From assembly GCA_022564995.1 (NCBI GenBank), contig JADFKK010000001.1, positions 30,786 through 94,785 on the forward strand: 64,000 nt of DNA. The letters run 5' to 3'. The number at the start of each line of letters is the position of its first letter. Position 1 is the first letter of the stretch. The notes beneath the pieces are model-generated. The model made no database searches. It saw only the letters and a program-made list of their open reading frames with translations, and had not been told where the DNA came from. The translations under genes and the position numbers were made by a program. Of the stretch, positions 4,502 through 54,433 are shown piece by piece. The DNA is from Planctomycetota bacterium. Its GTDB lineage: Bacteria > Planctomycetota > Planctomycetia > Pirellulales > JADFKK01.

Positions 4502-6718
4502 ATGGCAAATCTGCTAAACATCATTACGTCGCCGGTTGACGACCTGCTGCTGGGATCTTTCTCGGGATACGAAGAACTGTCCCGCTTGTTCAACTTCACG
4601 CTGCAGCTTACGTCGCGCGAGGATCACAACGTCTCACCGGACCAATTGGTCGGAAAACCGTTTGCCTTTAGCGTTAAATCCGATCTGGCCGACGCCGAGG
4701 GCGACGCCCGGCAGGAAGAGCGTTTCTTTCACGGATACGTCAATCGGTTTGTCGTCCACGGCAGCCAGGGCGGTCTCTGCCGTTACGAGATCGACGTCGT
4801 GCCCCGGATGTGGTTCCTCACCCGCACGTCCGATTGTCGTATTTTTTCCAAGAAGAAACTTCTCGACGTCGTCGAGTCGATTCTCCAAGAGCACGAAATC
4901 GATTTTGAATCGAGCAATTTGAACAAAGGCAGCTATCCCGATCGCGAATACTGCGTGCAGTATCGTGAAACCGATTTCAACTTCATCTCGCGATTGTTGG
5001 AGCAGGAAGGCGTCTATTATTACTTTCAGCACAGCCAGGACGGACACAAGCTGATCCTCTGCGACGCACCGAGCCATTACCGCGCGGACGATAACTGCCA
5101 GGAAGTCCCCTACGATGACAGCTTTCCGTTCACGCAGGCCAGCGTCACCCAATGGGTTCGGCAGTATCAGTTCGTGTCTGGTGGTTACGCCCAGACCGAT
5201 TACAACTACGAGGAAAATCCAGCTCGCGGCGATAAGACCCCTGCCGGGCTGCTAAAATCGCAGGCCAACATTGCTGGCCCTGCCGCGAATCTTACCGACG
5301 TGCAGAAATACGAAGTTTTCGACTACCCCGGCGAGTATGCCGACAAATCCGGTGGAGACCATTACACCGGGCGGAGGATGGAGGAAGAAGCGGCGGCCTA
5401 CGACGTTGCCAACGGCAGCAGCCTGCTCAGCCACTTCAGCGCGGGAGTGAAAATGAAGCTGGTTTTCCCGGCCGGGCCGCCGGCTCATCCACAAAAAGAA
5501 TCGCAGGACGGCGAGTATGCGATCCGTTCCGTTCAACACTCGGGAAGCAGCTCCGCCGACGGCACCGGTTCCGGCGCAGATTATTCAAATACCTTTACGG
5601 CGATTCCCGCCGACATGAAGTTTCGAACCCCGCGGATCACGCCTAAACCGCTCATCAGCGGCGTACAAACGGCCGTGGTGGTCGGCCCGCCCGGCAGCGA
5701 GATTCATACCGACGAATTGGGCCGGGTCCAACTCCAGTTTTTTTGGGACCGCTACGGCACTCGATCGCAAGGGGGTGACGAACAGGAGCCTATTTGGGTG
5801 CGGGTCGGTCAGATCAGCGCGGGTAAAAAATGGGGAGCGATGTTCATTCCGCGCGTCGGCCAAGAAGTGATCGTCACCTTTCTCGAGGGCGACCCCGATC
5901 GACCGCTGGTGACCGGCGGCGTTTACAACCGCGATCAGGAGCCCGCCTACAATCCGAAAGAAAACAAGACCAGGAGCGGCATCAAGACCTGCTCTTCGCC
6001 GGGGGCCGACGGCTTCAACGAACTGCGATTCGAAGACAAGAAGGGCGAAGAGCAAGTCTATATCCATGCCGAAAAGGACATGGAGGTGCGGGTCAAGAAC
6101 GACTCGAAGCTGCGAGTCTTCGGAAACCGGCATCAAATCGTGGGCACGGACGACGGCGGGAGCCTTTACGAGCAGGTCTATGAAGACAAGCACGTCGAAG
6201 TCAAGCAACACCTCATCCAACACATCGAAGGTAACTCCCAACTGACCGTGGGCAACGGCGACGCCTCGGACGGCGGCCATCTGGAAGTGGTGATCGAGAA
6301 GAAAGAAACGCGAAAAATCGGGCCCGATGGCTTACACCTAACGATTGAGGGCGACTACATCGAGAAAATCGGCGGTGGCCTGTCACAAGATATCGGCGGA
6401 GACCAGCAGACAAAAATTGGCGCGAATCTCGGGATCGAAGCCGGACAAGACATCCACATCAAGGGCGGAATGAACGTCGTCATCGAAGCCGGAATGCAAC
6501 TGTCGCTAAAGGTTGGTGGGAACTTCATCAGCATCGGGCCAGCCGGGATCGCCATTCAAGGCACCACCGTATTGATCAACAGCGGCGGCGCCGCCGGTAG
6601 CGGTAAAGGGGCCAAACCGGAAAATCCCAAGAAAGCGAAAGACGCCAAGCCAAAGGAACCCAAAGTCGCCGCCGAAAAGAACAAACACAAGGCGGGCCAG
6701 ATTTCCACGCCGTTTTAA
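4502..6718 (+). CDS. vgrG: VgrG (TssI) spike protein with Lys-rich C-terminal tail
   Basis: 738 aa. Contains 'FFHGYV' and 'RVGQISAGKKWGAMFIPRVGQEVIVTFLEGDPDRPLVTGGVYN', the gp27/gp5 core motifs of VgrG. Followed by beta-helix-like G-rich repeats. Confidence 0.9.
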   Translation: MANLLNIITSPVDDLLLGSFSGYEELSRLFNFTLQLTSREDHNVSPDQLVGKPFAFSVKSDLADAEGDARQEERFFHGYVNRFVVHGSQGGLCRYEIDVVPRMWFLTRTSDCRIFSKKKLLDVVESILQEHEIDFESSNLNKGSYPDREYCVQYRETDFNFISRLLEQEGVYYYFQHSQDGHKLILCDAPSHYRADDNCQEVPYDDSFPFTQASVTQWVRQYQFVSGGYAQTDYNYEENPARGDKTPAGLLKSQANIAGPAANLTDVQKYEVFDYPGEYADKSGGDHYTGRRMEEEAAAYDVANGSSLLSHFSAGVKMKLVFPAGPPAHPQKESQDGEYAIRSVQHSGSSSADGTGSGADYSNTFTAIPADMKFRTPRITPKPLISGVQTAVVVGPPGSEIHTDELGRVQLQFFWDRYGTRSQGGDEQEPIWVRVGQISAGKKWGAMFIPRVGQEVIVTFLEGDPDRPLVTGGVYNRDQEPAYNPKENKTRSGIKTCSSPGADGFNELRFEDKKGEEQVYIHAEKDMEVRVKNDSKLRVFGNRHQIVGTDDGGSLYEQVYEDKHVEVKQHLIQHIEGNSQLTVGNGDASDGGHLEVVIEKKETRKIGPDGLHLTIEGDYIEKIGGGLSQDIGGDQQTKIGANLGIEAGQDIHIKGGMNVVIEAGMQLSLKVGGNFISIGPAGIAIQGTTVLINSGGAAGSGKGAKPENPKKAKDAKPKEPKVAAEKNKHKAGQISTPF

Positions 6719-6792
6719 TACTTCAGCGCAACGTCGTCAGCGGCTTTCAAGGATGGAAAACGTGTCTGGAACGATCGGTTTCCGGAAAGCAA

Positions 6793-6950
6793 GGGACTGG
6801 AGATTGGGGGCTGGAGACTGGAGACTGGAGACTGGAGACTGGGGGCTGGAGACTGGGGGCTGGAGACTGGGGCGGGACGAGTCGGAAGCGAGGTTTCCCT
6901 AGTCCCCAGCACCTAGTCCCCAGTCTCTAGTCCCCAGCCCCCCAGTCCCC
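6793..6950. repeat. heptamer-phased imperfect palindrome (GACTGGA/GACTGGG/GGCTGGA units facing CTAGTCC/CCAGTCT units)
   Basis: About 11 tandem 7-nt units at 6793-6872. The loosely complementary C-rich units lie at 6897-6950, separated by a ~24-nt spacer. Confidence 0.8.
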
Positions 6951-7026
6951 AAACGCCCTACACAACATCGGCCTTCACAACCTAGCGCGGTCGTACTAAG
7001 TAAAAGACCAAAACAAAGGAGACGTC

Positions 7027-7311
7027 ATGCCACCCGCCGCGCGACTTGGTGATCTCCACGTCTGCCCGATGTTTGACGGACCGAAACCGCACGTCGGCGG
7101 ACCGATTGCGCTCGGCTGCTTTACCGTCATGATCGGCGGTCAGCCAGCGGCCCGCGTTGGCGACATGGCCGTTTGTGTCGGCCCTCCGGACGCCATCGCC
7201 ATGGGCTCCACGGGCGTCCTGATCGGCTATATGCCGGCCGCCCGCATGGGCGACACTACCGTCCACGGCGGCAAGATCGCCGTCGGCTTTCCCACCGTGA
7301 TGATTGGGTGA
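7027..7311 (+). CDS. PAAR domain protein (spike tip), no toxin extension
   Basis: 94 aa with three PAAR-type motifs (PAARLGD, PAARVGD, PAARMGD). AAGGAG Shine-Dalgarno sequence upstream. Confidence 0.85.
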   Translation: MPPAARLGDLHVCPMFDGPKPHVGGPIALGCFTVMIGGQPAARVGDMAVCVGPPDAIAMGSTGVLIGYMPAARMGDTTVHGGKIAVGFPTVMIG

Positions 7312-7401
7312 GCGGTCGTAAGAGCGACCGACAAAGAAGTCCGGAGCGTTCACTGTCACCAACCGTCCGCAAAAGCGTGAAAACTCTCGACAATACGTCA
7401 G

Positions 7402-7409
7402 CACCTTTG
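7402..7409. repeat. left copy of the 8-bp target-site duplication CACCTTTG of element E1
   Basis: The identical 8-mer abuts the other element end at 11535-11542. Confidence 0.75.
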
Positions 7410-7466
7410 GGCAGTGACACCGTTTCAGCCGTTGTCAGAGAGAAACGGTGGGAATGAGAAGAAAAG

Positions 7467-7751
7467 CTAAGGCAGAATCTCGCACTGCGGCGAATCCTGC
7501 TTGGGCGTTTCGAGGTCGTGCGGAAAAAATAGAATACAACGGTCGTGGTATGGATTCGGGCCAAAAAATCCGTTATGCTCACCGAAGCGTTTTTGCAACC
7601 ACGCCGCCGTCTCTTCTTTTTGCTTCTGTAGTGCCCGGTACTGCCTGTACTGAACCCAGCCGCCAAATGCGACGGTGGCCACCGTCATCACAATCATCAG
7701 CGTCTTCAGGCTGAACTGATACCAGCGACGTTTGTGCGGTGAGGCGTTCAT
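7467..7751 (-). CDS. small membrane-anchored protein (cargo of E1)
   Basis: 94 aa. N-terminus 'KRRWYQFSLKTLMIVMTVATVAFGGW' gives one predicted TM helix. No recognisable domain. Confidence 0.55.
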   Translation of the reverse strand: MNASPHKRRWYQFSLKTLMIVMTVATVAFGGWVQYRQYRALQKQKEETAAWLQKRFGEHNGFFGPNPYHDRCILFFPHDLETPKQDSPQCEILP

Positions 7752-7753
7752 AC

Positions 7754-7798
7754 GCCCATTATCCTGTCCGGGGAGGGGGAGGGGGAGGGGAAGGGCTA
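7754..7798. repeat. dispersed G-tract element, copy 1
   Basis: GCCCATTATCCTGTCCGGGGAGGGGGAGGGGGAGGGGAAGGGCTA. Shares a 19-mer with copy 2 (21096-) and a 17-mer with copy 3 (55472-). Confidence 0.8.
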
Positions 7799-8410
7799 TT
7801 CAATCGAATCCCAGAGATTGTCTGCTTTTACCCGCCGCGAAATCACCCCCGCTGACACCTCAAATGGCGACGCAATGTAAGACTCGACCATCTTCCTCAC
7901 CTCTTCGCTTGGTACTGCTGAAGAAATAGCGCCGACACTACGTGCCGCGTCAACCGCCGTAGAGAAGTGGTCGTGAAGCGGCTTCTCCTGGACGAGGATA
8001 AGGCCACCAAGGGAATACGCTTGAAATTCAATCCATCGAAGCTGGTCGTGTGGGATTCCTGCTACGACTGCCTTCCACTCAAACACTGATGAGAAATCTA
8101 GCTCGGCGATTATGTCCTTGTGAAGAACAATGTGGGCCAACTCATGGGCAAGGCTAAAGCGATACCTGTTTGGCCGGTTCTTATAAACGAATTCGTCGAT
8201 ATAAACCGTCTTCAAATCTTTACTCGGCGCTGACTCCATCTCCAAGTTGTTCTGGAGCCCCGGAATTGCCACAATGTCAAGGTCAAACTCGTATTCGGCG
8301 ATGCGTTCGATGGGCACTGGTAGAGTGCCTTCCGGGTGGTGTTCTGCGAGAAACGTGTCTGCGACTTCTCGAAGCTTATCATATGGGAGAAAAGGGGCTT
8401 TGATGGGCAC
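7796..8410 (-). CDS. ImmA/IrrE family metallopeptidase
   Basis: 204 aa with the HExxH motif 'AHELAHIVLH'. Sits immediately downstream of an XRE regulator, as in ImmR/ImmA modules. Confidence 0.8.
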   Translation of the reverse strand: MPIKAPFLPYDKLREVADTFLAEHHPEGTLPVPIERIAEYEFDLDIVAIPGLQNNLEMESAPSKDLKTVYIDEFVYKNRPNRYRFSLAHELAHIVLHKDIIAELDFSSVFEWKAVVAGIPHDQLRWIEFQAYSLGGLILVQEKPLHDHFSTAVDAARSVGAISSAVPSEEVRKMVESYIASPFEVSAGVISRRVKADNLWDSIE

Positions 8411-8414
8411 GGCT

Positions 8415-8786
8415 TCATGATCTCCGTATCATTTCCAGCAATTCGTCCAGCTTTTCTGATGGAAACGGGTGCCCGCGAAGGGTCCGAAACAGGGCCGGAA
8501 GCTTGTCGATGAGTTCCTCATCGGACAGCAAGTCCTTTGGAAATTCACCGCGAGCCGCCGCCGCTGCATCAAAAAATTCAATCCATGCGTCCGTGTCTCG
8601 CTGAATCTCTAGGGCAACGGCATATTTTTCGAGTAGCTGTTGTCCCTGCGGTGGTGACGCGCGGCCGCGCTCCAGGCGGCTGTAGTTGCCAGGGTCAATG
8701 TCGTTTTTGAGGCAAAACTCGCGGAGCGTGAGCCCCAATTTTTTGCGATGTGCCTTGAGCGTTCTGCCAAATATGTTTTCCGCCAT
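8415..8786 (-). CDS. XRE-family helix-turn-helix regulator
   Basis: 'LKAHRKKLGLTLREFCLKNDIDPGNYSRLERGR' HTH_XRE signature. Start chosen at the internal ATG (8786), which is preceded by GGAGGA; the ORF track extends to 8846. Confidence 0.8.
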   Translation of the reverse strand: MAENIFGRTLKAHRKKLGLTLREFCLKNDIDPGNYSRLERGRASPPQGQQLLEKYAVALEIQRDTDAWIEFFDAAAAARGEFPKDLLSDEELIDKLPALFRTLRGHPFPSEKLDELLEMIRRS

Positions 8787-8834
8787 GATGAGTCCTCCGC
8801 ATCGCGGACGTAAGTCGTTTTGGATATTGTACTT

Positions 8835-8862
8835 ATAATACAACACCGGCCGACCTAGTCAA
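8835..8862 (-). promoter_or_regulatory. candidate sigma70-type promoter of the E1 XRE gene, overlapped by the palindrome TTGTA-N7-TACAA (8827-8843)
   Basis: On the minus strand: TTGACT, 16-nt spacer, TATTAT. A second TACAA-N3-TTGTA lies near 8957-8969. Confidence 0.4.
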
Positions 8863-9060
8863 GTGATGTCTGGAAGATCATCGTCTTTGTCAGGTCATAT
8901 CTTAACGCCCTTTGGCGGAGTGTCAAGATGACGAGTCGCGTAAATCTCTGGAAATACAACAATTGTAGTCACGTCCGTTGGTCACCCGGGGGTCACTTAA
9001 GTGCCGTTCGTTTCACTGGACCCTCTTGAAAAAGATGAGAAGGATGACTAGACTTCGTGT

Positions 9061-9777
9061 ATGGACATTGAAAGCCAACTCGCGGCCTCCGATGCGTTCT
9101 CCCGACTTTGCGCGGACGCGATGCGGGTCAAGAGTCTACATGAGGCCGCTGAAATGGAACTGCCGCCGTCGCTCAGGCAGTTCTTCGGGATTCAAGAAAC
9201 AAATGGATCGGCACTCAGCCGCCCCCGTGTGTCGATTCCGCCGCCGCAATCACCCCCCGGTCCGTCGCACGCGAGTTCGGACTGGATTTGGGTTCCAATG
9301 GAGGACATGCACGCGACCGGAATCGTTTTGGCCATTCTTCGCCAAGCTGCTGGACCCGTTGAGCCGGCGACCGTAACGGAAAAGGTTCTTCAACATCAGC
9401 CTGACGTGAATCCCAGAAGTGTTCTGAATATCGGCCCGCGGCAAGAAGGCAAGCTTATTGAAAGAACGAATGAGGGTTGGGTGCTTCGCGGCGATAAAGA
9501 CCGAGCCCCCGTCCTGCACAAGGGACACGCATGGGGGCCGCCAACGGTTTTCGACAAACAAGAATTGGCCGCCCATCGCAGGATAATGCTGGCCCACCTG
9601 CTTGATGCAATGCCTGGCGGATTGCAGGTGGTTCAGATTGTTGAACAGTTGAAAAACCTACCGTACTGCCGCGCGCCAGTCAGCAAGGACTTGGTAAAGG
9701 CAGACTTGTCGGCAATGCAAGAGGTTGGCAAGGTGAAGCGTGTCGGCAACACCCGTAAATGGGTCTTGTCGAATTAA
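9061..9777 (+). CDS. hypothetical protein with two winged-helix-like segments (E1 cargo)
   Basis: 238-aa ORF divergent from the XRE gene. Two segments ending '...EGWVL' and '...RKWVL' resemble wHTH wings. No confident family. Confidence 0.5.
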   Translation: MDIESQLAASDAFSRLCADAMRVKSLHEAAEMELPPSLRQFFGIQETNGSALSRPRVSIPPPQSPPGPSHASSDWIWVPMEDMHATGIVLAILRQAAGPVEPATVTEKVLQHQPDVNPRSVLNIGPRQEGKLIERTNEGWVLRGDKDRAPVLHKGHAWGPPTVFDKQELAAHRRIMLAHLLDAMPGGLQVVQIVEQLKNLPYCRAPVSKDLVKADLSAMQEVGKVKRVGNTRKWVLSN

Positions 9778-9833
9778 GACGCTATCGTAACGGACTGACG
9801 GAAAGGCACGGTTTGCCTATGAACGAACAAAAC

Positions 9834-9876
9834 GACCTCGGCGAAAGTGCTAATTTCGCCGAGGTCTTTGTCGTTT
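9834..9876 (+). terminator. Rho-independent terminator after ORF 9061-9777
   Basis: 13-bp stem GACCTCGGCGAAA / TTTCGCCGAGGTC, 7-nt loop, followed by TTTGTCGTTT. Confidence 0.7.
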
Positions 9877-9888
9877 GAAGGATTGGAT

Positions 9889-9961
9889 GCCAGGGTAGCT
9901 CAGTGGAGAGAGCAGCCGACTGCTAATCGGCAAGTCGCGGGTTCGACCCCCGCCTCGGGTA
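9889..9961 (+). tRNA. class-I tRNA-like gene, anticodon loop CUGCUAA (anticodon GCU), weak acceptor stem
   Basis: Manual cloverleaf. D arm: TAGCTCAGTGGAGAGAGC. Anticodon stem: GCCGA/TCGGC. Variable loop: 5 nt. T arm: GCGGG-TTCGACC-CCCGC. The acceptor stem has one A.G mismatch and two G.U pairs. No encoded CCA. Confidence 0.55.
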
Positions 9962-9986
9962 TCTTTTTCCTTCGTCCCGTCGCTTC

Positions 9987-10051
9987 GGGCCTGCCAGGTG
10001 GTAACGGTGCTTTATAAGCATCGTGACCGGGTTCAACTCCCGGCAGGTCCA
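9987..10051 (+). ncRNA. D-arm-less tRNA-like element, anticodon-type loop UUUAUAA
   Basis: Acceptor GGGCCTG/CAGGTCC. T arm CCGGG-TTCAACT-CCCGG. 7-bp stem ACGGTGC/GCATCGT with a 7-nt loop. Only 10-12 nt where a D arm should be. Confidence 0.4.
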
Positions 10052-10200
10052 CTGAAAAACCGCAGCACGCGGCCACGGTCATTCTGCGCGCCACCCTAGC
10101 ACATACACGGAATGTCGTCAAACCCCTTTTTACGAAAGGAGTTATGTCGTGCCTTGGCTACCACGCGCAGAAATATCCAAAGGGGCCTTACGGCCCCCGA

Positions 10201-10392
10201 TTATTTGTTTCGGCGTTTTGCTGCCCTGAGCAAAATCTCTCTCGCCCACACGGCAACAGATTTGCCAGATTTAGCAGCCGCCTGCCGGATGATGTCCCAC
10301 TGCTCGTCCGGCCAGCGTCCGACCTGCCGAACGGGATTTATCTCTTTCACCGCCTTTGCAGGGCGTCCAGGGCCACGTTTCGTCTTACTCAT
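10201..10392 (-). CDS. ribbon-helix-helix (CopG/MobC-like) DNA-binding protein
   Basis: 63 aa. 'VRQVGRWPDEQWDIIRQAAAKSGKSVAVWAREILLRAA' fits the RHH beta-alpha-alpha pattern. Divergent from the transposase gene. Confidence 0.65.
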   Translation of the reverse strand: MSKTKRGPGRPAKAVKEINPVRQVGRWPDEQWDIIRQAAAKSGKSVAVWAREILLRAAKRRNK

Positions 10393-10455
10393 GCCCCAAG
10401 TCTATACCGCCATGGGTTTTGTGTCAATACATGATATTTTCATAAACTCCCTATT

Positions 10456-10490
10456 TCGTGTATTAACACGAAATTATATTCTGGTACAAT
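10456..10490 (+). promoter_or_regulatory. candidate transposase promoter of E1 with an overlapping palindrome
   Basis: TTAACA (10463-10468), 16 nt, TGgTACAAT (extended -10, 10482-10490). The palindrome TCGTGT-ATTA-ACACGA (10456-10471) covers the -35. AT-rich divergent region. Confidence 0.45.
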
Positions 10491-10622
10491 TGAGACAGTG
10501 AATGAAAAACCCCGACGCCTGCTGAAACAAGCACCGGGGCAACAACAATCGGGCTTTCGCCAGACTATTGTCTGTCAAACGCATTCTAGCGAGAGCCCCC
10601 AACGAAGGGAAGGTTTCTCGCT

Positions 10623-11495
10623 ATGGCCAACAGAATGAGCACCGAAAAGCGTAACACGATCTTGCGACTCATGGTCGAAGGAAACAGCATCCGCTCCATC
10701 ACCCGCCTTATGGGAACCAACATTCCATCGGTCATCCGCCAACTCACCTGGGCCGGCGACCACTGCGCCGCCCTGATGAATGAACGATTCCGACACCTGA
10801 CGCTCACCCATGTCGAGTGCGACGAAATCTGGACCTTCGTACAAAAGAAGCAATCCCGCCTCACGATGGAAGAGCGCGAGACCCGTGGCGACATTGGCGA
10901 CATCTACCTCTGGACCGCCCTGGACCAAGGCAATCGCCTGATTCCCAGCTTCGTCGTAGGCAAGCGCTCGGCCGACAATGCCCGCCGGTTGATGATGGAC
11001 CTGCGGAGCCGTATCACGATCCCACGGCCGCACGAAGCGGACGTGACGGGCGAGTACCGCAAGGTGCTGCAAATCTCGTCGGACGGATTCGCCGCGTATC
11101 CCGAAGCTGTCGATCTTGCCTTCGGCCCCTACGTCAAGTTCGGCACGATCATCAAAGACTATCGAAACGCCAACATGCCCTACACGCCCAGCGAGATGGT
11201 TGGCACTCAACGACGGGGCATCAAGGGCATACACGGCAGCGAAGAACGGACGATATGCACGTCGCACGTCGAGCGAAACAACCTCACGATCCGCACGTTT
11301 ATGAAGCGGTTCACCCGGCTCGCCCTGGGATTCAGCAAGAAACTCGAAAACCTGGAATCGGCCGTCAGCCTCCACATGGCCTATGACAACTTCTGCTGGC
11401 GTTCGGGCGAAATGAGGGTCACGCCGGCGATGGCCGCGAAGGTCACCAAGACGCTATGGAGTTTCGACGATCTGATGATGGGGACGGCGGCCTAG
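10623..11495 (+). CDS. IS1 family transposase (single fused ORF)
   Basis: 290 aa. N-terminal HTH, 'CDEIWTFV', 'YLWTALD', 'SSDGFAAY' and 'HVERNNLTIRTFMKR' match the IS1 DDE/ERxN pattern. Confidence 0.85.
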   Translation: MANRMSTEKRNTILRLMVEGNSIRSITRLMGTNIPSVIRQLTWAGDHCAALMNERFRHLTLTHVECDEIWTFVQKKQSRLTMEERETRGDIGDIYLWTALDQGNRLIPSFVVGKRSADNARRLMMDLRSRITIPRPHEADVTGEYRKVLQISSDGFAAYPEAVDLAFGPYVKFGTIIKDYRNANMPYTPSEMVGTQRRGIKGIHGSEERTICTSHVERNNLTIRTFMKRFTRLALGFSKKLENLESAVSLHMAYDNFCWRSGEMRVTPAMAAKVTKTLWSFDDLMMGTAA

Positions 11496-11534
11496 CGGGT
11501 TTTTCCTTACCTTTGGTCAAACGGTATCACTACC

Positions 11535-11542
11535 CACCTTTG
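11535..11542. repeat. right copy of the 8-bp target-site duplication CACCTTTG of E1
   Basis: Identical to 7402-7409 and directly abuts the right terminal inverted repeat (IRR). Confidence 0.75.
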
Positions 11543-11580
11543 AAGGGGTTTGACTTGTTGCCGGAAATCGCTAAGGTGTT

Positions 11581-11601
11581 GGTAGTGTTGTAGTTTCAGC
11601 A
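11581..11601. repeat. solo IS1-type left-end remnant
   Basis: GGTAGTGTTGTAGTTTCAGCA matches the E1 IRL GGCAGTGACACCGTTTCAGCC at 14/21 (GG.AGTG and GTTTCAGC blocks) and the E2 IRL at 12/15. No partner right end seen. Confidence 0.4.
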
Positions 11602-11714
11602 TCAGGCACCGGTATCATCGCCCTGAGGATAGGGGCGGCTCTGAAATCCCCAGTCCGCAGCGGCTTGGATCGGCGAGGACGTTCGTTCGCGCCGCACTCA
11701 TCCAGGATCTGGCC

Positions 11715-16615: not shown

Positions 16616-16637
16616 GCCGCCGGCTTGCCGCGGCGAT

Positions 16638-17109
16638 AGTGAGCCGCAAGGCGCTAGCCGCGGGTATCGTGCGGGAAAACGCAACCTGAACGGACCGGCG
16701 GCTAGCGCCTAGCCGCTCACGCGCGATCGATGTCGTAGGCCGCCGGCTTGCCGCGGCGCCGCCCCTGACAGATTGGCTGCCAAAACGGCAGGTTGATTTC
16801 GCTGCCGGCGCTGTTGATGGTCATTGTCGGCGTGAAGTTCCTCGGCGTAACTCGCTGGCTCATCAAGACTTGCGGCTTCTAAAACGCCACGGCCCCGCGA
16901 CTTGGCACGAGGGTTGCGTTATTGGGCCGGCGACATGATCGGAATCCGGCGGCGGCTGGTCGCTGGGGGCCGGGACACGAAAGCAGTCTGTCAATCAGCC
17001 GCGGGGCGCTAGCCCAATGGCACTTACTTTGAGCGGCACGGCGCTAGCCGCCGGTGACCTCGGGTTACGTTTTCCCGCACAAAACCCGCGGCTAGCGCCT
17101 TGCGGCTCA
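16638..17109. repeat. long-range nested inverted repeats (GCTAGC-centred family)
   Basis: 16638-16680 is the reverse complement of 17067-17109, with 3 mismatches (about 43 nt). 16691-16714 pairs with 17031-17054. The direct repeat GTAGGCCGCCGGCTTGCCGCGGCG occurs at 16611 and 16735. Confidence 0.75.
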
Positions 17110-17162
17110 CCTTGGCCGCGGCTGGTGAATAATTTGGACTAAGCAAATAAGGAGGGTGCATC

Positions 17163-21095: not shown

Positions 21096-21146
21096 GCCCC
21101 ATTATCCTGTCCGGGGCGGGAGAGGGAAAGCGGGAAGGGGAATGGG
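21096..21146. repeat. dispersed G-tract element, copy 2
   Basis: GCCCCATTATCCTGTCCGGGGCGGGAGAGGGAAAGCGGGAAGGGGAATGGGG. The 19-mer CCCATTATCCTGTCCGGGG is identical to copy 1. Confidence 0.7.
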
Positions 21147-39835: not shown

Positions 39836-39913
39836 GATTACTTGCCACAAGAAACCACCAACGAAGCGGATATCCTCTCCGCGTCGATGCGATAATGTTG
39901 GATCAACAATCCC

Positions 39914-42900
39914 ATGGCAAAGAAAAAGGAAACGACCGGTAAACTCAGTCGAAGGTTCCGCCCGTTCAAGAAGGCCCGAGACTTTGTCCGCGGTCTTGAT
40001 TTGAAGAATGGCACTGAATGGACGCTGTACTGCAAGGGGGATCTGCCCGGCAAACCGTCGAAACCGGACGACATTCCGGCGTGTCCGCTCGGAATCTATA
40101 AGGACCACGGCTGGAAGGGAATGGGCGACTGGTTGGGGACCGGGACGATTGCGTACCACGTCCGTACCTACCGCCCGTTCAGAAAAGCCCGCAGCTTTGT
40201 CCACCGACTTGAGTTGAAGAGTGGCGCTGAGTGGAGGCGGTACTGCAAGGGGGAGCTGCCCAAGAAACCGCCGAAACCGGACGACGTTCCGGCGAGCCCG
40301 CAAGGAACCTATCAGGACCAAGGCTGGCAGGGATATGGCGACTGGCTGGGGACCGGGACGATTGCCCCCTTTCTCCGAAAGTTCCGCCCGTACAATAAAG
40401 CCCGTGAGTTTGCCCACGCACTCGAGTTGAAGAACAAAAGGGAGTGGCTACAGTACTGCAGAGGAGAGCTGCCCGACAAGCCGCCCAGACCGGACGATAT
40501 TCCGGCGGCCCCGAATGAAGCCTACGAAGACCGGGGCTGGAAGGGATATGGCGACTGGCTGGGGACCGGGAGGATTTCCGCCCATTTCCGTAAGTTCCGC
40601 CCGTTCAAGAAAGCCCGCGACTTTGCCCGCGCGCTTGATTTGAAGGATTACGTGGAGTGGAGGCAGTACTGCAAAGAAGGGCTGCTGGGCAAGCCGCCCA
40701 AACCGTTCGATATTCCCAGCACTCCGCACGAAATTTACAAACAGCAAGGCTGGTGCGGACTGGTCGACTGGCTGGGAACCCGAACAGAAGACGGATTTCT
40801 TCGTAAATACCGGCGGTTCAAGCAGGCCCGAGAGTTTGTCCAGGCGCTTGAGTTGAAGGATCGAGACGAGTGGCTCCAGTATTGCGGAGGAGAGTTGCCC
40901 GGCCAACTTCCGAAACCGGACGACATTCCGACGAAGCCAAGCCATGCTTACAAAGATGAAGGTTGGAAGAGCTTGGGCGATTGGCTGGGGACCGGCAGGT
41001 TCCACCAGATAAATCTACGCCCGTTCAGGAAAGCCCGCGCCTTCGTCCGGTCGCTTAAGTTGCAGAGCGTCGCTGAGTGGAAGCGTTACTGCAAGGGCGA
41101 GATGCCCGACAAACGGCCCAAACCGGTCGATATTCCGGCCTCCCCACAACCGGTTTACCAACATCAAGGCTGGGCGGGAATGGGCGACTGGCTGGGGACC
41201 GGAACCATCGCGCCGCAACTCCGCACCTACCGCCCGTTCAAGGAAGCCCGAGATTCTGTCCACACGCTTAAGCTGAAGACTCTAGCCGAGTGGAAGCAGT
41301 ACTGCAAAGGAGAGCTAACGGACAAGCCGCGCAAAACGGACGATATTCCGAGTCGCCCGCAGCGAGTTTACCAAGACAAGGGCTGGAAGGGAATTCGCGA
41401 CTGGCTGGGGACCGGGTCGATCGCGCACCGCCGCGCGTTCCAGAAGGCCCGCGTCTTTGTCCACGCTCTTGAGTTGAAGAGTCTCGGCGAGTGGATGCAG
41501 TACTGCCAAGGAACGCTGCCCGGCCAACGGCCCAAACCGGACGATATTCCGGCGTTCCCGATGAAAATCTACAAAGACAAAGGCTGGAAGGGATACGTCG
41601 ATTGGCTGGGAATCGACAAGAAACGCCGGACGAAGGCCCGTCCGTTCAAGGAGGCCCGTCACTTTGCACTCGCCCTTGGGTTGAAGAATAGCACTGAGTG
41701 GAAGCGATACTGCAAAGGAGAGCTGCCCGGCCAACAGCCCAAACCGGACGATATTCCAAACGACCCGCGACAAGCTTACCAAGCCAAAGGCTGGCAGGGA
41801 TATGGCGATTGGCTGGGAACCGGGGCGACGGCTACCTTTCTCCGCAAATACCGTTCGTACAAGAAAGCCCGCGCCTTCGTCCGGACACTTGAGTTGAAGA
41901 ATCTCGCCGAGTGGGCGCAATACTGCAAAGGAGAGCTGCCCGACCAACAGCCCAAACCGGACAATATTCCGGCCACGCCGCAGATGGTCTACAAAGACAC
42001 CGGCTGGACCGGAGTGGGTGACTGGCTGGGGACCGCCAGATGCAGCCGGACGAACTTACGCCCGTTCAAGAAAGCCCGCGCCTTTGTCCGCTCTCTAAAG
42101 TTGAAGAATCTCGCCGAGTGGACGCAGTATTGTCAAGGAAAGCTGCCCGACCAACGGCCCAAACCCAACGATATTCCGGCCACGCCGCAAAGTGTCTACA
42201 AAGACACCGGCTGGACCGGAGCGGGTGACTGGCTGGGGAATGGGACAATTCCCCCTTTTGCGGGTAAGCGCCGCCCGTTCAAGAAAGCCCGCGCCTTTGT
42301 CCGCTCTCTCAAGTTGAAGAATCTCGCCGAGTGGACGGAGTATTGTCAAGGAACGCTGCCCGGCCAACGGCCCAAACCGGACGATATTCCAGCGTGCCCG
42401 AGGATCATCTACAAAGACAGAGGCTGGAAGGGATCTGTCGACTGGCTGGGAACCGGCAAGTCCAGCCGGAAGAGACCACATCCGTTTGAGGAAGCCCGCA
42501 GATTTGCCCGCTCGCTTGAGTTGCAAAATGGCGCCGAGTGGAGGGAATACTGCAAAGGAAACTTACCCGAAAAGCCGCGCAAGCCGGACGGTGTTCCAAC
42601 ATACCCAGGCATCGCATATAAAGACCAAGGTTGGAAGGGACTGGGCGACTGGTTGGGGATCGACAAGATCGTCCGGAAGAGATTTCGTTCGTTCAAGGTA
42701 GCCCGCCGCTTCGTACACAGGCTCGGGTTGAAGGATGTCGCTGAGTGGGAGCGGTACTGCAATGGAAATCTTCCCGGCCGCCGGACGAAACCGGACAACA
42801 TACCGGCGTTCCCAAGGGGGATCTACCAAGACGACGGCTGGAAGGGAATGGACGACTGGCTGGGAACCGACGATGACAGCCGGAAGAATCTACGTCCGCT

Positions 42901-45900
42901 CAAGGAAGCCCGCCAGTCCGCACGAAGGCTTGGGTTGAAGAATCAAGCGCCCGTCAGACCGCCCAAATCGGTCGACATCGCGGCGAACTCGAGTCGAATC
43001 CAACCAGGCCAAGGCCGGAAGGGGCTGGGCATCTCGCCGGGAACCGGGTCGACCGCGAACCGCGTCCGTGCATACCGCCCGTTCAAGAAGGCCCGCGACT
43101 TTGTCCACGCTCTTGAGTTGAAGGGTCTCGGCGAGTGGACGGAGTATTGTCAAGGAACGCTGGCGGGCCAACGGCCCAGACCGGACGATATTCCGGCGTT
43201 CCCAAGGGGTATCTACAAAGACCAAGGCTGGACGGGATACGACGACTGGTTGGGGACCGCACGTCCGTTCGAGGAAGCCCGTGATTTTGTCCACGCACTT
43301 GAGTTGGAGACTCAAGCGGAGTGGACGCGGTACTGTAAAGGAGAGTTGCCCGACAAACGGCCGAAACCGTGCGATATACCCGTGCGCCCGAATCGAACCT
43401 ACCAAGGCAAAGGCTGGAAGGGGTGGCGTGACTGGCTGCGGACCGGGACGATTGCGTACCAACTCCGTAAATACGGCCCTGAAGACCGCCGTGAGCGCCG
43501 CCGTGCGCACCGCCCGTTCTGGGGAGCCCGCGCGTTTGTCCACACACTTGAGCTAAAGAGTGGAAGTGAGTGGAGGCGGTACTGCACAGGAGATCTGCCC
43601 GACCAGGAGCCCAAACCGGACGATATTCCGTCCGCCTCACACATGGTTTACAAAGGGAAGGGCTGGACGAGTTGGGGTGACTGGCTGGGGACGGGGACCA
43701 TTGCGAGTTCCCTCCGCAAGTACCGCCCGTTCAAGAAAGCCCGCGCCTTGGTCCACACGCTTGAGCTAAAGAATGAAGCGGAGTGGAGGCAGTACCGCAA
43801 AGGAGAGCTTCCCGACAAGCCGCCCAAACCGGACGATATTCCGGCGTGCCCAATTCGAGTCTACAAAAACAAAGGCTGGAAGGGAATTGGCGACTGGCTG
43901 GGGACCGGGAACATTGCGCCCCGTCTCCGTAAATTCCGCCCGCTTAAGAAAGCCCGCGGCTTTGTCCACGCGCTTAAGTTGAAGAATCAATTGGAGTGGC
44001 AGGCGTACTGCAGGGGAGAACTGCCCGACAAGCCGCCCAAACCGGACGATATTCCAAGCGTGCCGAACCAAGTTTACGAGGACAAAGGCTGGATGGGACT
44101 TAGCGACTGGCTGGGGACCGACAAGTTCAGCCGGTATAAGATACGTCCGTTCAAGAAAGCCCGCGACTTCGTCCGCGCACTTGAGCTGAAGAGTGGAGAT
44201 CAGTGGCGTCGGTACTACAAAGGAGAACTGCCCAACAAACCGCCCAAACCGGTGGATATTCCGGCGGCCGCAAGTCGCATCTACAAAAACCAAGGCTGGC
44301 AGGGAATGGGCGACTGGCTGGGGACCGGGACGATTGCCCCCCATCTCCGTAAGTACCGCTCGTTCAAGAAAGCCCGTGACTTTGTCCACGCGCTTGGGTT
44401 GAAGAATCAAGATGAGTGGAGGCAGTACTGTCAAGGAGAGCTGCCCGACAAACCGCCCAAACCGGACGATATCCCGACCTCCCCGGAGGCGGTTTACAAA
44501 CACAAAGGCTGGAAGCGGACGGGCGACTGGCTGGGGACCGGGATGATTGCCACCGGACGCCGTAAATACCGACCCATCAAGAAGGCCCGCGACTTCGTCC
44601 GCGCACTTGAATTGAAGAGCGACGCTGAATGGAAACGGTATTGCAAGGGAGAGTTGCCCGACAAACCGCCCAGACCGGACGATATTCCAGCCTGCCCGGA
44701 TCGAACCTACCGAGGCAAAGGCTGGCAGGGATTGGGCGACTGGCTGGGGACCGGGGCCATTGCGCACCGTCTCCGTAAATACCGCGCGTTTAAGAAAGCC
44801 CGTAACTTTGTCCGCGCGCTTGAGTTGAAGAATCACACGGAGTGGAAGCAGTACTGCAAAGGAGAGCTGCCCGACAAACCGCCCAAACCGGACGATGTTC
44901 CGACCGCCGCGGATCGAGTTTACAAGCACCGAGGCTGGCAGGGATGGGGTGACTGGCAGGGGACCGGGGCGATTGCCCCGTTTCTCGGTAAGTACCGCCC
45001 GTTCAAGAAAGCCCGCGCCTTTGTCCGCACGCTTAAGTTGAAGAATCAAGCGGAATGGAAGCAGTACTGCAAAGGAGAGCTGCCCGACAAACGTCCCAAA
45101 CCGGTCGATATTCCAAACAACCCGAACCGAACTTACCAAGACAAGGGCTGGAAGGGAGTTGGCGACTGGCTGGGGACCAGGGCGATTTCCTCCCGTCTTC
45201 GTAAGTACCTCCCGTTCAAGAAAGCCCGCAAATTTGTCCGCGCGCTGGAGTTGAAAAATGGCGCCGAGTGGAGGGAGTACTGCAAAGGAAATCTGCCCGA
45301 CAAGCCACCCAAACCGAACGATATTCCAAGGGAGCCGAACGAAATCTACAAGGACAAAGGCTGGAAGGGACTGGGCGACTGGATAGGGACCGCGACGGTC
45401 GCCACCTATCCCCGTGATTACCGGCGGTTTAGGAAAGCCCGCGACTTTGTCCACACGCTTGGGTTGAAGAGTCAGGCCGAGTGGACGCGGTACTGTAAAG
45501 GAGAGTTTCCCGACAAGCCGCCCAAACCGGACGATATCCCGGCCTCTCCGGAAACGGTTTACAAACACAAAGGCTGGAAGCGAGCGGGCGACTGGCTGGG
45601 GACCGGGACGATTGCCACGCAACAGCGCAGATACCTCACCTTCAAGAAAGCCCGCGCCTTGGTCCACACACTTGAGCTGAAGAATCGAGTTGAGTGGATG
45701 CAGTACAGCGAAGGAACGCTGCCCGGCAAACCGCCCAAACCGGACGACCTTCCGAAGGCCCCAGAGATGGTTTACAAGGACAAAGGCTGGAAAGGATGGG
45801 GCGATTGGCTGGGGACTGGGAGGACTGCTACCTTTCGCCGCAAATACCGCCCCTTCAAGAAAGCCCGCGAGTTTGTACACACACTTGCGTTGAAAAATAA

Positions 45901-46249
45901 TAACGAATGGACGCGGTACGCCAAAGGCGAGTTGCCCGGCAAGCCTCCCAAACCGTATGATGTTCCGGCCTCCCCGCATGTTGTTTACAAAGACAAGGGC
46001 TGGAAGGGACGGGGCGACTGGCTGGGAACCGGGGCGATTTCCTCCCGTCTTCGTAAGTACCGCCCGTTCAACAAAGCCCGCGCCTTTGTCCACAGGCTTG
46101 AGTTGAAGAATCACGCGGAGTGGAAGCAGTATTGCAAAGGAGAGTTTCCCGACAAGCCGCCCCGGCCGGACGATATTCCGATTAGCCCGCTATATGTTTA
46201 CCAAGACAAAGGCTGGAAGGGAGTTGCCGACTGGCTGGGGAGATCGTGA
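39914..46249 (+). CDS. giant tandem-repeat protein: about 30 copies of one ~70-aa basic module, no other domain
   Basis: Uninterrupted 6.3-kb ORF with ~210-nt periodicity. Consensus: [FY]RPFKKAR.FV..L.LK...EW..YCKGELP.KPPKPDDIP..P...YK.KGW.G.GDWLGTG.IA..LRK. Confidence 0.85.
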   Translation: MAKKKETTGKLSRRFRPFKKARDFVRGLDLKNGTEWTLYCKGDLPGKPSKPDDIPACPLGIYKDHGWKGMGDWLGTGTIAYHVRTYRPFRKARSFVHRLELKSGAEWRRYCKGELPKKPPKPDDVPASPQGTYQDQGWQGYGDWLGTGTIAPFLRKFRPYNKAREFAHALELKNKREWLQYCRGELPDKPPRPDDIPAAPNEAYEDRGWKGYGDWLGTGRISAHFRKFRPFKKARDFARALDLKDYVEWRQYCKEGLLGKPPKPFDIPSTPHEIYKQQGWCGLVDWLGTRTEDGFLRKYRRFKQAREFVQALELKDRDEWLQYCGGELPGQLPKPDDIPTKPSHAYKDEGWKSLGDWLGTGRFHQINLRPFRKARAFVRSLKLQSVAEWKRYCKGEMPDKRPKPVDIPASPQPVYQHQGWAGMGDWLGTGTIAPQLRTYRPFKEARDSVHTLKLKTLAEWKQYCKGELTDKPRKTDDIPSRPQRVYQDKGWKGIRDWLGTGSIAHRRAFQKARVFVHALELKSLGEWMQYCQGTLPGQRPKPDDIPAFPMKIYKDKGWKGYVDWLGIDKKRRTKARPFKEARHFALALGLKNSTEWKRYCKGELPGQQPKPDDIPNDPRQAYQAKGWQGYGDWLGTGATATFLRKYRSYKKARAFVRTLELKNLAEWAQYCKGELPDQQPKPDNIPATPQMVYKDTGWTGVGDWLGTARCSRTNLRPFKKARAFVRSLKLKNLAEWTQYCQGKLPDQRPKPNDIPATPQSVYKDTGWTGAGDWLGNGTIPPFAGKRRPFKKARAFVRSLKLKNLAEWTEYCQGTLPGQRPKPDDIPACPRIIYKDRGWKGSVDWLGTGKSSRKRPHPFEEARRFARSLELQNGAEWREYCKGNLPEKPRKPDGVPTYPGIAYKDQGWKGLGDWLGIDKIVRKRFRSFKVARRFVHRLGLKDVAEWERYCNGNLPGRRTKPDNIPAFPRGIYQDDGWKGMDDWLGTDDDSRKNLRPLKEARQSARRLGLKNQAPVRPPKSVDIAANSSRIQPGQGRKGLGISPGTGSTANRVRAYRPFKKARDFVHALELKGLGEWTEYCQGTLAGQRPRPDDIPAFPRGIYKDQGWTGYDDWLGTARPFEEARDFVHALELETQAEWTRYCKGELPDKRPKPCDIPVRPNRTYQGKGWKGWRDWLRTGTIAYQLRKYGPEDRRERRRAHRPFWGARAFVHTLELKSGSEWRRYCTGDLPDQEPKPDDIPSASHMVYKGKGWTSWGDWLGTGTIASSLRKYRPFKKARALVHTLELKNEAEWRQYRKGELPDKPPKPDDIPACPIRVYKNKGWKGIGDWLGTGNIAPRLRKFRPLKKARGFVHALKLKNQLEWQAYCRGELPDKPPKPDDIPSVPNQVYEDKGWMGLSDWLGTDKFSRYKIRPFKKARDFVRALELKSGDQWRRYYKGELPNKPPKPVDIPAAASRIYKNQGWQGMGDWLGTGTIAPHLRKYRSFKKARDFVHALGLKNQDEWRQYCQGELPDKPPKPDDIPTSPEAVYKHKGWKRTGDWLGTGMIATGRRKYRPIKKARDFVRALELKSDAEWKRYCKGELPDKPPRPDDIPACPDRTYRGKGWQGLGDWLGTGAIAHRLRKYRAFKKARNFVRALELKNHTEWKQYCKGELPDKPPKPDDVPTAADRVYKHRGWQGWGDWQGTGAIAPFLGKYRPFKKARAFVRTLKLKNQAEWKQYCKGELPDKRPKPVDIPNNPNRTYQDKGWKGVGDWLGTRAISSRLRKYLPFKKARKFVRALELKNGAEWREYCKGNLPDKPPKPNDIPREPNEIYKDKGWKGLGDWIGTATVATYPRDYRRFRKARDFVHTLGLKSQAEWTRYCKGEFPDKPPKPDDIPASPETVYKHKGWKRAGDWLGTGTIATQQRRYLTFKKARALVHTLELKNRVEWMQYSEGTLPGKPPKPDDLPKAPEMVYKDKGWKGWGDWLGTGRTATFRRKYRPFKKAREFVHTLALKNNNEWTRYAKGELPGKPPKPYDVPASPHVVYKDKGWKGRGDWLGTGAISSRLRKYRPFNKARAFVHRLELKNHAEWKQYCKGEFPDKPPRPDDIPISPLYVYQDKGWKGVADWLGRS

Positions 46250-46277
46250 AGGTGAGTCTGGCCTGTTTAGAGGGAGC

Positions 46278-50433: not shown

Positions 50434-50581
50434 CGAATGACGAATGACGAATGTCTAATGTCTAATGTCTAATGTCTAATGTCTAATGTCTAATGTCTAA
50501 TGTCTAATGTCTAATGTCTAATGTCTAATGTCTAATGTCTAATGTCTAATGTCTAATGTCTAATGTCTAATGTCTAATGAC
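50417..50581. repeat. heptanucleotide microsatellite: (GAATGAC)4 GAATGTC (TAATGTC)17 TAATGAC
   Basis: About 23 perfect head-to-tail 7-nt units. Overlaps the stop of ORF 49033-50433 and ends 54 nt before the cyclase start. Confidence 0.9.
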
Positions 50582-50634
50582 GAAACCCGCGCCCAAAGAA
50601 GTGGCGCTGTCCAAGCGAAGGGTCGACGAAAAAC

Positions 50635-54344: not shown

Positions 54345-54433
54345 GGTAGTGTCCTAATTCGAATCGGCGTCAGAAAGAAACGGTGGAAAGTTAGAAAAGA
54401 CAAGCGGCCTGAAACCGTTTCACTTCGGTGCAG

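Follow-up and report, generated by a model that had tools for sequence, protein, structure and literature searches.

Irregular tRNAs encoded near mobile elements have gone unexplained since 2017, when Mukai et al. (PMC5389517) described allo-tRNAs with 8/4 and 9/3 acceptor and T stems, most often with the anticodon UAU and in some cases with G3.U70, together with irregular-tRNA polycistrons near toxin-antitoxin and transposon-related genes. Another departure from the cloverleaf is found in animal mitochondria, where D-arm-less tRNA-Ser has a short connector in place of the D arm, an extended anticodon stem and a retained T arm (PMC7609411). For the present analysis, 64,000 nucleotides (nt) from a Planctomycetota bacterium were read (GCA_022564995.1, contig JADFKK010000001.1, positions 30,786–94,785, forward strand); this whole stretch is called the window and supplies the positions given here, and L-numbers denote the loci and contigs with which it was compared. 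Two tRNA-type RNAs, (a) and (b), are encoded in the window inside E1, an IS1-family transposon with cargo, and very probably represent genuine tRNA-type genes under selection that E1 carries along, as members of a loose class of irregular tRNAs on mobile modules.

9889–9961, plus strand: (a), a class-I tRNA with anticodon GCU and a body best described as arginine-type (Rfam, ARAGORN, A20/C35/U36/A73 and covarying relatives)
9987–10051, plus strand: (b), a D-arm-less tRNA-like RNA with G3.U70, A73 and loop UUUAUAA (fold, relatives and covariation)

In the Infernal alignment, (a) has a 7-base-pair (bp) acceptor with the wobble pairs G1.U72 and G6.U67 and A4xG69 as its sole mismatch, and a 4-bp D stem with loop AGUGGAGA and A at position 20. 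Its 5-bp anticodon stem closes the loop CUGCUAA, the variable loop has 5 nt and the T stem 5 bp, and the discriminator is A73, CCA not being encoded. It scores as a canonical tRNA, with 61.3 bits to Rfam tRNA RF00005 (gathering score, 29 bits; E 8e-11 for the whole window), and ARAGORN calls a tRNA-Ser(GCT) at 9888–9963. An initial annotation, made from the letters of the sequence, had already described this class-I fold with its D, anticodon and T arms and 5-nt variable loop, the anticodon GCU (on which ARAGORN and Infernal agree) and the A.G acceptor mismatch, and its point that a class-I GCU tRNA is without canonical identity in bacteria is supported here. A long variable arm (class II) is the main determinant for seryl-tRNA synthetase (SerRS), so the label tRNA-Ser is unlikely for (a), in which that arm is absent and the variable loop is just 5 nt, unlike bacterial tRNA-Ser. 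The determinants for asparaginyl-tRNA synthetase are U35 and G73; (a) has C35, A73 and A20, and the asparagine tRNA aligned with it has a U20-type D loop and only the stem-loop context GACU...AAUC in common. The D arm of (a), GGAGAGAGC (with A20), is identical in alignment to that of the tRNA-Arg(TCT) of Mycobacterium phage Typha and its anticodon stem to that of the tRNA-Lys of phage Lolly9, the 31-39 pair being A-U as in Lys and Asn tRNAs. BLAST searches returned tRNA-Arg as the best match in E. coli genomes, followed by prophage tRNA-Ile and tRNA-Arg, and actinophage tRNA-Arg(TCT) and tRNA-Lys as the nearest phage genes. The derivation from tRNA-Asn by a U35-to-C change that had been proposed for (a) is contradicted by the phage tRNA-Arg(UCU) match of the D arm, by the E. 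coli tRNA-Arg match and by A73 in place of the G73 of tRNA-Asn.

Identity nucleotides were compared with Table 1 of Giege and Eriani 2023 (PMC9976931), where the set for arginyl-tRNA synthetase (ArgRS) is A20, C35, U/G36 and A/G73. As far as its sequence goes, (a) would offer ArgRS the complete set (A20, C35, U36, A73), although its anticodon is of neither arginine form (NCG or YCU) and reads AGC/AGU, and it is best described as an arginine-type tRNA with G as the wobble base. Bacterial tRNA-Arg(UCU/CCU), including phage and prophage copies, resembles (a) in the D arm, A20, C35, U36 and A73 and differs in that (a) has G34 (for the Ser codons AGC/AGU, not the Arg codons AGA/AGG), the A-U 31-39 pair and the A.G acceptor mismatch.

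One genome per species (185,579 species) was scanned for an arginine-type D arm combined with the loop CUGCUAA, which returned 56 loci in many phyla, most with an ARAGORN class-I tRNA(GCU). That frequency alone would fit sporadic mutation, and it is relevant to the proposal that (a) and (b) are decayed captured host tRNAs, pseudogenes left by transposon pick-up or disruption: arginine-type GCU tRNAs are rare, as for sporadic wobble-position tRNA-Arg(YCU) mutants, the acceptor of (a) combines its mismatch with two G.U pairs, and (b) is without a whole arm. By tblastn, 13 of the 56 loci hold an IS1-family transposase 31–38% identical to that of E1, and in seven of these 13 the two genes share a strand, with the tRNA ~130–330 nt upstream of the transposase and a hairpin before it in every case. 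Two Bryobacterales genomes (L093 and L123) are 78% identical from tRNA to transposase, with flanks unrelated even at the protein level. Inverted repeats were looked for around the minimal tRNA(GCU)–transposase units and not detected. When (a) and the 13 linked tRNAs were folded jointly (RNAalifold), 14 of the 21 pairs showed compensatory changes, and G1.U72 was present in 5 of the 14 sequences. With 13 linked loci, the hairpins and this covariation, a structurally intact tRNA(GCU) is a recurrent companion of the transposase family, to which it is tied in at least six phyla, a distribution that speaks against decay. Irregular tRNAs themselves were known; the recurrent link between an arginine-type tRNA(GCU) and IS1-family transposases across phyla is an unexpected extension. 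No report of tRNAs on IS1-family elements was found in literature searches, which covered a limited library and are not proof of absence; the same searches returned no report of the D-arm-less form or of a cargo module like that of E1 (M78 peptidase, helix-turn-helix (HTH) regulator and 238-amino-acid (aa) protein).

Several further GCU elements were seen in the compared loci. A Phycisphaeraceae locus (L139, 1311–1513) has tandem class-I tRNAs with anticodons GCU and ACU beside an IS1-family transposase and a homologue of a ribbon-helix-helix (RHH)-like open reading frame (ORF) of E1. Three unrelated class-I tRNA(GCU) genes (L126, 4430–4504; L128, 2713–2788; L131, 4004–4080) combine a D-loop change of G18 to A with a T-loop change of U55 to G, which looks like covariation of a tertiary pair. 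On a Candidatus Rariloculaceae chromosome (L105, 4285–5123) lies an array of irregular tRNAs, most of them after AT-rich promoter-like sequence: a class-I GCU, an ACG, a D-stem-less element with a 9-bp acceptor, a 79-nt UAC, a call with a 2-nt ‘anticodon’ and a GAU. One tRNA-like group with an arginine-type D arm, CUGCUAA and a good T arm has only ~4 acceptor pairs (ending ...CTTGA) and is called in part by ARAGORN; it occurs in viral contigs (L008–L010, L013–L019, L021) and in bacterial ones (L100, L103, L107, L109, L111, L115, L137) from several phyla, including Flavobacteriaceae, Polaribacter, Bacteroidales, Lachnospiraceae and Acetivibrio. A second GCU group with ~4 acceptor pairs, most members starting ..ATAGTGGTAGCTCAG and ending ..CCCGCCCACTC, is conserved across genera (L104, L114, L120, L127, L130 and L136, mostly Alphaproteobacteria; L132, Mycobacterium palustre; and L020).

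The second RNA, (b), has a 7-bp acceptor (GGGCCUG/CAGGUCC) with G3.U70 as the sole wobble pair, followed by A73, an 11-nt linker CCAGGUGGUAA in the position of the D arm, a stem CGGUGC/GCAUCG of six pairs (seven with a flanking A-U pair) capped by UUUAUAA and, after UGA, a canonical T arm (CCGGG-UUCAACU-CCCGG). Its minimum free energy is -37 kcal/mol (z = -5.9 relative to shuffled sequence), and none of 200 shuffles folds as well. The acceptor with one G.U pair, the T arm, the 7-bp stem with its UUUAUAA loop and the missing D arm had been recognised in the initial annotation and are borne out. Search tools split the two RNAs that it had paired: (a) is well above the Rfam threshold and called by ARAGORN, while (b) falls under every Rfam threshold and is called by ARAGORN neither as a tRNA nor as a transfer-messenger RNA (tmRNA). 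Below threshold, Rfam matches (b) to the tRNA-like domain of tmRNA with 26.7 bits (threshold, 47) and to mascRNA with 26.6 bits (threshold, 42.5); no match to the tRNA model is listed, the list showing only the best of overlapping matches from one clan, here tmRNA.

The best Rfam match raises the alternative that (b) was left behind either by the host tmRNA gene, as a fragment, or by an integrative element, as a tmRNA-type attachment site. The tRNA-like domain of tmRNA and (b) alike lack a D stem and keep a canonical T arm; in each, the 7-bp acceptor contains G3.U70 and is followed by A73, and a helix takes the position of the anticodon stem. The 25-nt T-arm and 3' acceptor sequence of (b) recurs exactly in the viral contig L022, followed there by CCA. 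In contrast to tmRNA, (b) has 5 nt where the model has ~310 nt, with no mRNA-like part, tag reading frame or pseudoknots; the Rfam alignment does not match its linker CCAGGUGGUAA to the tmRNA consensus GGAUUCGAC, its capping loop bears an anticodon-loop signature (U33, A37), and its site is within a transposon rather than at an island border. Nor is (b) just the 3' end of a tmRNA, because both acceptor halves are present and closed by a short conserved hairpin. A tmRNA origin is therefore hardly credible.

Relatives of (b) were scored with a model of its family, R1. The strict pattern (GGUGGUAA + UUUAUA + T loop) had no match in viral or genome contigs, and a looser one, applied to the metagenome and viral collections, recovered just two true relatives that are distinct, which suggests that the family is rare or that the patterns were too narrow. 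These are metagenome contig L076 (2122–2189; 93.5 bits to R1) and viral contig L045 (83.2 bits), a contig of 37,074 nt that is also present in the metagenome collection as L067. R1 found no further copies in the window or in the loci on which it was run, except for a weak match (26.7 bits) to the D-stem-less element of L105. Relative to (b), L076 has compensated changes at acceptor pair 6 (U6-A67 to C6-G67) and at three of six hairpin pairs, an identical linker, UGA and G3.U70, the hairpin loop UUUAUAC in place of UUUAUAA and one different base in the T loop; L045 has the acceptor, linker and T arm in common with (b) and a degenerate middle part. Across the three sequences, 7 of 18 pairs changed on both sides, pairing drops to ~50% when partners are slid by one column, and G3.U70, A73, G2-C71, the 5' linker and the T-loop core are invariant. 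The blastn alignment of L076 with the window covers the element and not its flanks; there, three tRNA-like genes stand in tandem, from a 94-nt tRNA(UAU) of 9/3 shape (9-bp acceptor, 3-bp T stem) as the first to the (b)-like RNA as the last. Compensatory changes thus preserve every stem in both families, and the loops of (b) are nearly constant across unrelated contigs, which makes the decay that the initial annotation had listed as an option very unlikely.

The identity set for tRNA-Ala comprises G3.U70, A73, G2-C71 and G4-C69, and that for tRNA-Ile A73, C4-G69, A35, U36, A37 and A38, with U12-A23, G16 and U20 in the D arm (PMC9976931). Three of the alanine nucleotides (G3.U70, A73, G2-C71) are present in (b), with C4-G69 instead of G4-C69. 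An isoleucine identity does not fit, for although A73, C4-G69 and A35–A38 are present, the D arm is absent, position 34 is U, and the L076 relative has C38. Like the animal mitochondrial tRNA-Ser, (b) has a short connector for the D arm, an extended anticodon stem and a retained T arm; unlike that organellar RNA, which works with specialised elongation factors, it is bacterial, bears alanine-type acceptor determinants and sits on a transposon.

The transposon itself is defined by its ends, and its features are as follows.

7388–7446, no strand: left inverted repeat of E1 (~60-nt local alignment with the reverse complement of 11499–11563)
7467–7751, minus strand: 94-aa ORF of the cargo (ORF list; no Pfam match above threshold)
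7796–8410, minus strand: M78 (ImmA/IrrE-type) metallopeptidase, CapP-like (Pfam Peptidase_M78, E 1.5e-9; PADLOC capP, E 1.4e-9)
8415–8846, minus strand: XRE-type HTH regulator, CapH-like, divergent from the 238-aa gene (Pfam HTH_31 and HTH_3; PADLOC capH, E 1.8e-5)
9061–9777, plus strand: 238-aa protein with predicted winged-helix domains, directly upstream of the tRNA genes
9834–9866, plus strand: 13-bp hairpin, 22 nt upstream of (a) (z = -6.75 for 9820–9880)
10201–10392, minus strand: 63-aa RHH-like ORF (weak Pfam NikA-like match, E 0.0087, below cutoff)
10463–10490, plus strand: promoter-like site of the transposase gene (TTAACA-16-TACAAT)
10623–11495, plus strand: IS1-family transposase of E1 (Pfam DDE_Tnp_IS1, 31 bits; cutoff, 24.1)
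11499–11563, no strand: right inverted repeat of E1 (same alignment as the left)

The repeats share the core TGGG[C/T]AGTGA[C/T]ACCGTTT, which also occurs at both ends of a second element, E2, and the flanking 9-mers GAAAACTCT (7379–7387) and GAAATCGCT (11564–11572) are 7/9 identical and may be an old target duplication, that of the IS1 family being 8–9 bp. Because the terminal motif recurs inverted at both ends and the 9-mers match at 7/9, E1 (~7388–11563, 4.2 kb) is taken as an IS1-family transposon with cargo. Its inverted repeats enclose (a) and (b), so both move along with it, as had been proposed. The transposase has 7,816 homologues at E ≤ 1e-20, several of them named IS1 family transposase at source and the nearest labelled Pirellulales. 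Related IS1-family copies (L024–L040) have in common with the window just ~10455–11500 and hold no tRNAs in their loci (ARAGORN), which suggested that the tRNAs lie outside the insertion sequence; this idea was overturned by the inverted repeats of E2 and the matching ends of E1. The -35 and -10 hexamers of the transposase promoter are aligned in both copies long enough to reach them (L027 and L036). The placement of the two RNAs between a terminator (9834–9876) and the transposase promoter holds for their positions, and the 13-pair hairpin is real at 9834–9866, although the minus-strand RHH-like ORF intervenes between (b) and the promoter-like site. A megablast search of 8900–11600 against plasmids gave no match, and exact-protein look-ups returned only copies of the same locus.

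Within the cargo, the M78 peptidase and the XRE regulator are 45% and 59% identical, respectively, to syntenic genes in L140–L142, and they may form a pair of the CapH/CapP type, in which an HTH repressor lies beside an M78 peptidase, is divergent from the operon it controls and is cleaved on signal. The 238-aa protein belongs to no Pfam family; its AlphaFold2 model (19 sequences) has a mean pLDDT of 92.3, and Foldseek returned weak winged-helix matches (TtgV, Z-alpha, SelB), none at E ≤ 0.001. A tblastn homologue of the RHH-like ORF (42% over 66 aa, E 7e-6) stands beside the GCU and ACU tRNAs of L139, and the ORF at the same position in L140 has no significant similarity to that of E1. The loop of the hairpin before (a), GUGCUAA (9847–9853), resembles the anticodon loop CUGCUAA; the hairpins of other loci differ, and this may be coincidence.

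The 238-aa protein has 19 homologue matches, those in L140–L142 and L145 lying next to irregular tRNAs, and its nearest homologue (P0122 in L140, 54% identity) keeps the order of M78 peptidase, HTH and protein, with a hairpin, a 93-nt tRNA(UUA) (9-bp acceptor, 3-bp T stem; 39 bits to the tRNA-Sec model) and a transposase of another kind, DDE_Tnp_1, downstream. A second homologue (L145) lies beside a 95-nt tRNA(UAU), and at three further homologue loci no tRNA was detected. Since a 238-aa homologue adjoins a 9/3 allo-tRNA(UUA), the locus is tied to the irregular tRNAs of Mukai et al. (PMC5389517), with which (a) and (b) also share an anticodon at odds with identity elements and an often tandem arrangement, one RNA of that set having GCU. 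Modules homologous to or neighbouring those described here likewise hold true 9/3 tRNAs (L140, UUA; L076, UAU). They are not themselves allo-tRNAs, because their acceptor and T stems are 7/5 rather than the 12-bp branch of 8/4 or 9/3; moreover, neither has a long variable arm, (b) has no D arm, and the host is a planctomycete, in contrast to Clostridia, Proteobacteria and Acidobacteria. Two additional observations concern these loci. A conserved non-coding stretch with CGATGGTCCGTGGGTTCGCCATCG and a GC-rich hairpin follows 238-aa homologues in L143 (4860–5000) and L148 (1430–1570), without a detected tRNA, and an Acido-Lenti-1 RNA motif (43.5 bits; threshold, 37) lies just downstream of the DDE_Tnp_1 transposase in L140 (6794–6839, minus strand).

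E1 has the order of gene, hairpin, tRNA, own promoter and transposase in common with E2, L140 and seven further loci, those that pair a GCU tRNA with an IS1-family transposase and where a hairpin likewise precedes the tRNA. This recurrence is in keeping with the main rival explanation, in which (a) and (b) are non-decoding tRNA mimics for RNA processing, RNase P and RNase Z cutting at tRNA shapes. The tRNA-like mascRNA lies downstream of a structured RNA end and is cut by RNase P. In the same way as mascRNA does for MALAT1, the RNAs of E1 would give the cargo mRNA a defined, hairpin-protected 3' end and split read-through transcripts from the transposase mRNA. Like mascRNA, (b) is a tRNA-like fold downstream of a structured RNA; mascRNA is eukaryotic and unrelated in sequence, and a cleavage role for (b) would be an analogy. 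Such a role is compatible with the sub-threshold mascRNA match, with the acceptor and T-arm module required by RNase P, which (b) retains, and with the facts that no separate tRNA promoter is predicted and that the transposase genes need no recoding. It leaves unexplained why the D and anticodon stems covary in the (a) type, why D-loop base 18 and T-loop base 55 change jointly in some loci, why (b) and the RNA of L076 have the loop UUUAUA in common, and why G3.U70 is invariant across the (b) family. Processing fits (b) better than the covarying (a)-type cloverleaf; as an account of the pair, mimicry for cleavage is possible but rather doubtful, and the same holds for the mRNA 3' end and transcript splitting as its purpose.

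The window holds a second element of the same build as E1.

54337–57882, no strand: E2, an IS1-family transposon (terminal inverted repeats)
56620–56723, plus strand: E2 tRNA, 104 nt, with a variable arm of ~32 nt, loop UUUAUAC (UAU) and G73 (Rfam tRNA, 46.6 bits)

The inverted repeats of E2 are 45 nt long (54337–54381 and 57838–57882), 23 nt of them perfect, and enclose a dCTP-deaminase-like 321-aa ORF, a 72-aa HTH ORF, a 197-aa ORF, a hairpin, the tRNA and a transposase (56792–57838) 51% identical to that of E1. The tRNA has a 7/5 acceptor and T stem, is not called by ARAGORN and, from its long arm and G73, would suggest a serine identity on the isoleucine AUA anticodon. The proteins upstream of the tRNAs in E1 (238 aa), E2 (197 aa) and L090 (201 aa) are not detectably homologous. 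The dCTP-deaminase-like protein has a coiled-coil tail.

The loop UUUAUA is thus set in unrelated scaffolds, since besides (b) it is found in the tRNA of E2 and in the tRNAs with a long arm in L076, L145 and L117. This would be expected if conserved loops were recognised and the RNAs acted on tRNA-targeting toxins or anticodon nucleases, as decoys or antidotes, or were RNA partners of neighbouring regulators. Neighbours resembling toxin-antitoxin or defence genes (XRE/M78, the RHH-like ORF, the dCTP-deaminase-like protein and SocA_Panacea in L143) are in keeping with such a role, as is the toxin-antitoxin association noted by Mukai et al. 2017 (PMC5389517). No nuclease or toxin gene was identified in E1, however, and minimal units of tRNA(GCU) plus transposase occur without such partners, so that a decoy function is quite unlikely.

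Codon usage was examined in the transposase genes. The AGC/AGU codons of the E1 transposase gene lie mostly in Ser-dominated columns of the alignment, two of them conserved in 52/55 and 55/55 sequences; those of its relatives fall in varied columns, rarely Arg, and the AUA codons of the transposase genes fall in Ile/Met/Val columns. AGY makes up 0.36–0.40 of Ser codons in the elements and 0.39 in host ORFs and is not avoided, and AUA is 3–4x commoner in the genes of E1 and E2 than in the ORFs of the host. That the two RNAs recode the transposase gene of their element, one of the functions that had been suggested for them, is unsupported because AGY and AUA codons are not at conserved Arg and Ala columns. 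Supply of a tRNA for the rare codon AUA was considered and rejected, as neither UAU RNA is isoleucine-bodied ((b) has G3.U70, the E2 tRNA a long arm and G73).

Taken together, the mechanism that we tentatively put forward is that (a) and (b) are tRNAs of mismatched identity, matured and probably charged, that act at a low or conditional level. We infer their transcription, processing, charging and effect on decoding as follows. Since the stretch from the 238-aa gene to (a) contains no promoter-like site, expression would depend on read-through of the 9834–9866 hairpin from the promoter of the 238-aa gene, which the divergent XRE/M78 (CapH/CapP-like) pair probably controls. RNase P and 3' end-processing enzymes would then release the RNAs, and CCA would be added. 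Charging would follow body and acceptor identity and not the anticodon, with (a) charged by ArgRS (A20, C35, U36, A73) and (b) by alanyl-tRNA synthetase (G3.U70, A73, G2-C71), so that Arg would be joined to an anticodon for the Ser codons AGY and Ala to one for the Ile codon AUA. The effect may be conditional low-level missense decoding, or the sequestering of tRNA-binding factors, to the benefit of the element, and would not be decoding needed by the transposase gene.

A number of points weigh against this mechanism. We know of no D-arm-less tRNA that works with bacterial EF-Tu and ribosomes. The absence of a predicted plus-strand promoter-like site from the gap that separates (a) from the 238-aa gene is itself unfavourable, and the hairpin may end transcription ahead of the tRNAs. 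Efficient insertion of Arg at AGC would damage the E1 transposase, none of the 13 linked relatives shares the A4xG69 mismatch of (a), and the anticodon common to the 56 scanned loci is not independent evidence, as the search pattern fixed GCU. In addition, allo-tRNA(UAU) variants were inactive as E. coli suppressors (Mukai et al. 2017, PMC5389517).

Other features of the window were noted in passing. Just beyond the right end of E1 (11571–11610) a third left-end repeat motif (GGTGTTGGTAGTGTTGTAGTTTCAGC) stands in forward orientation and may be the solo end of another element. A 41-nt repeat (CCCATTATCCTGTCCGGGG and a G-rich run) occurs at 7755–7795, 21098–21138 and 55473–55513, the first and last copies just past the stops of the minus-strand genes that end at 7796 and 55522, the middle one 58 nt beyond the stop of the minus-strand ORF ending at 21196; it was considered as the mark of a third tRNA-bearing element and rejected, the copy near 21.1 kb not being part of one. 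E1 is bordered directly on the left (4502–7311) by a large ORF (4502–6718), which we take from the look of its sequence to be VgrG-like, and a PAAR-domain gene (Pfam PAAR_motif), and directly on the right by a DUF58 gene and a transglutaminase-type gene. Approximately 26 tandem copies of a 213-nt (71-codon) unit, 60–83% identical, span 39870–46290 and, the period being a multiple of three, probably encode a very large repetitive protein. A heptanucleotide microsatellite (50389–50598) switches from TGACGAA repeats to ~20 TGTCTAA repeats, and a 93-nt inverted repeat (16627–16719 and 17030–17122) is 86% complementary with 310 nt between its arms.

For the irregular tRNAs found near mobile elements, the locus offers three handles, namely a defined IS1-family carrier with recognisable ends, a recurrent arginine-type GCU partner and a small conserved D-arm-less RNA. 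Disagreement between anticodon and identity has a counterpart in the Streptomyces tRNAPro variants with non-proline anticodons, which mistranslate naturally and come with a dedicated synthetase; E1 has no dedicated synthetase. The broadest reading, which we consider unlikely, is of a widespread IS1-family transposon group in Acidobacteriota, Proteobacteria, Bacteroidota, Actinomycetota and Planctomycetota that carries deliberately mismatched tRNAs (an arginine-identity tRNA(GCU), a D-arm-less alanine-type tRNA(UAU) and long-arm UAU and UUA tRNAs) and alters how the host reads AGY, AUA and UAA, as a conditional mistranslation weapon or a stress switch; if it were true, bacteria would also possess a working D-arm-less tRNA. 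Should these RNAs be charged and reach the ribosome, transposons would be agents that spread genes for an altered reading of the genetic code among their hosts; should they not, the locus would add a new case of the tRNA shape put to another use, in RNA processing or as a decoy.

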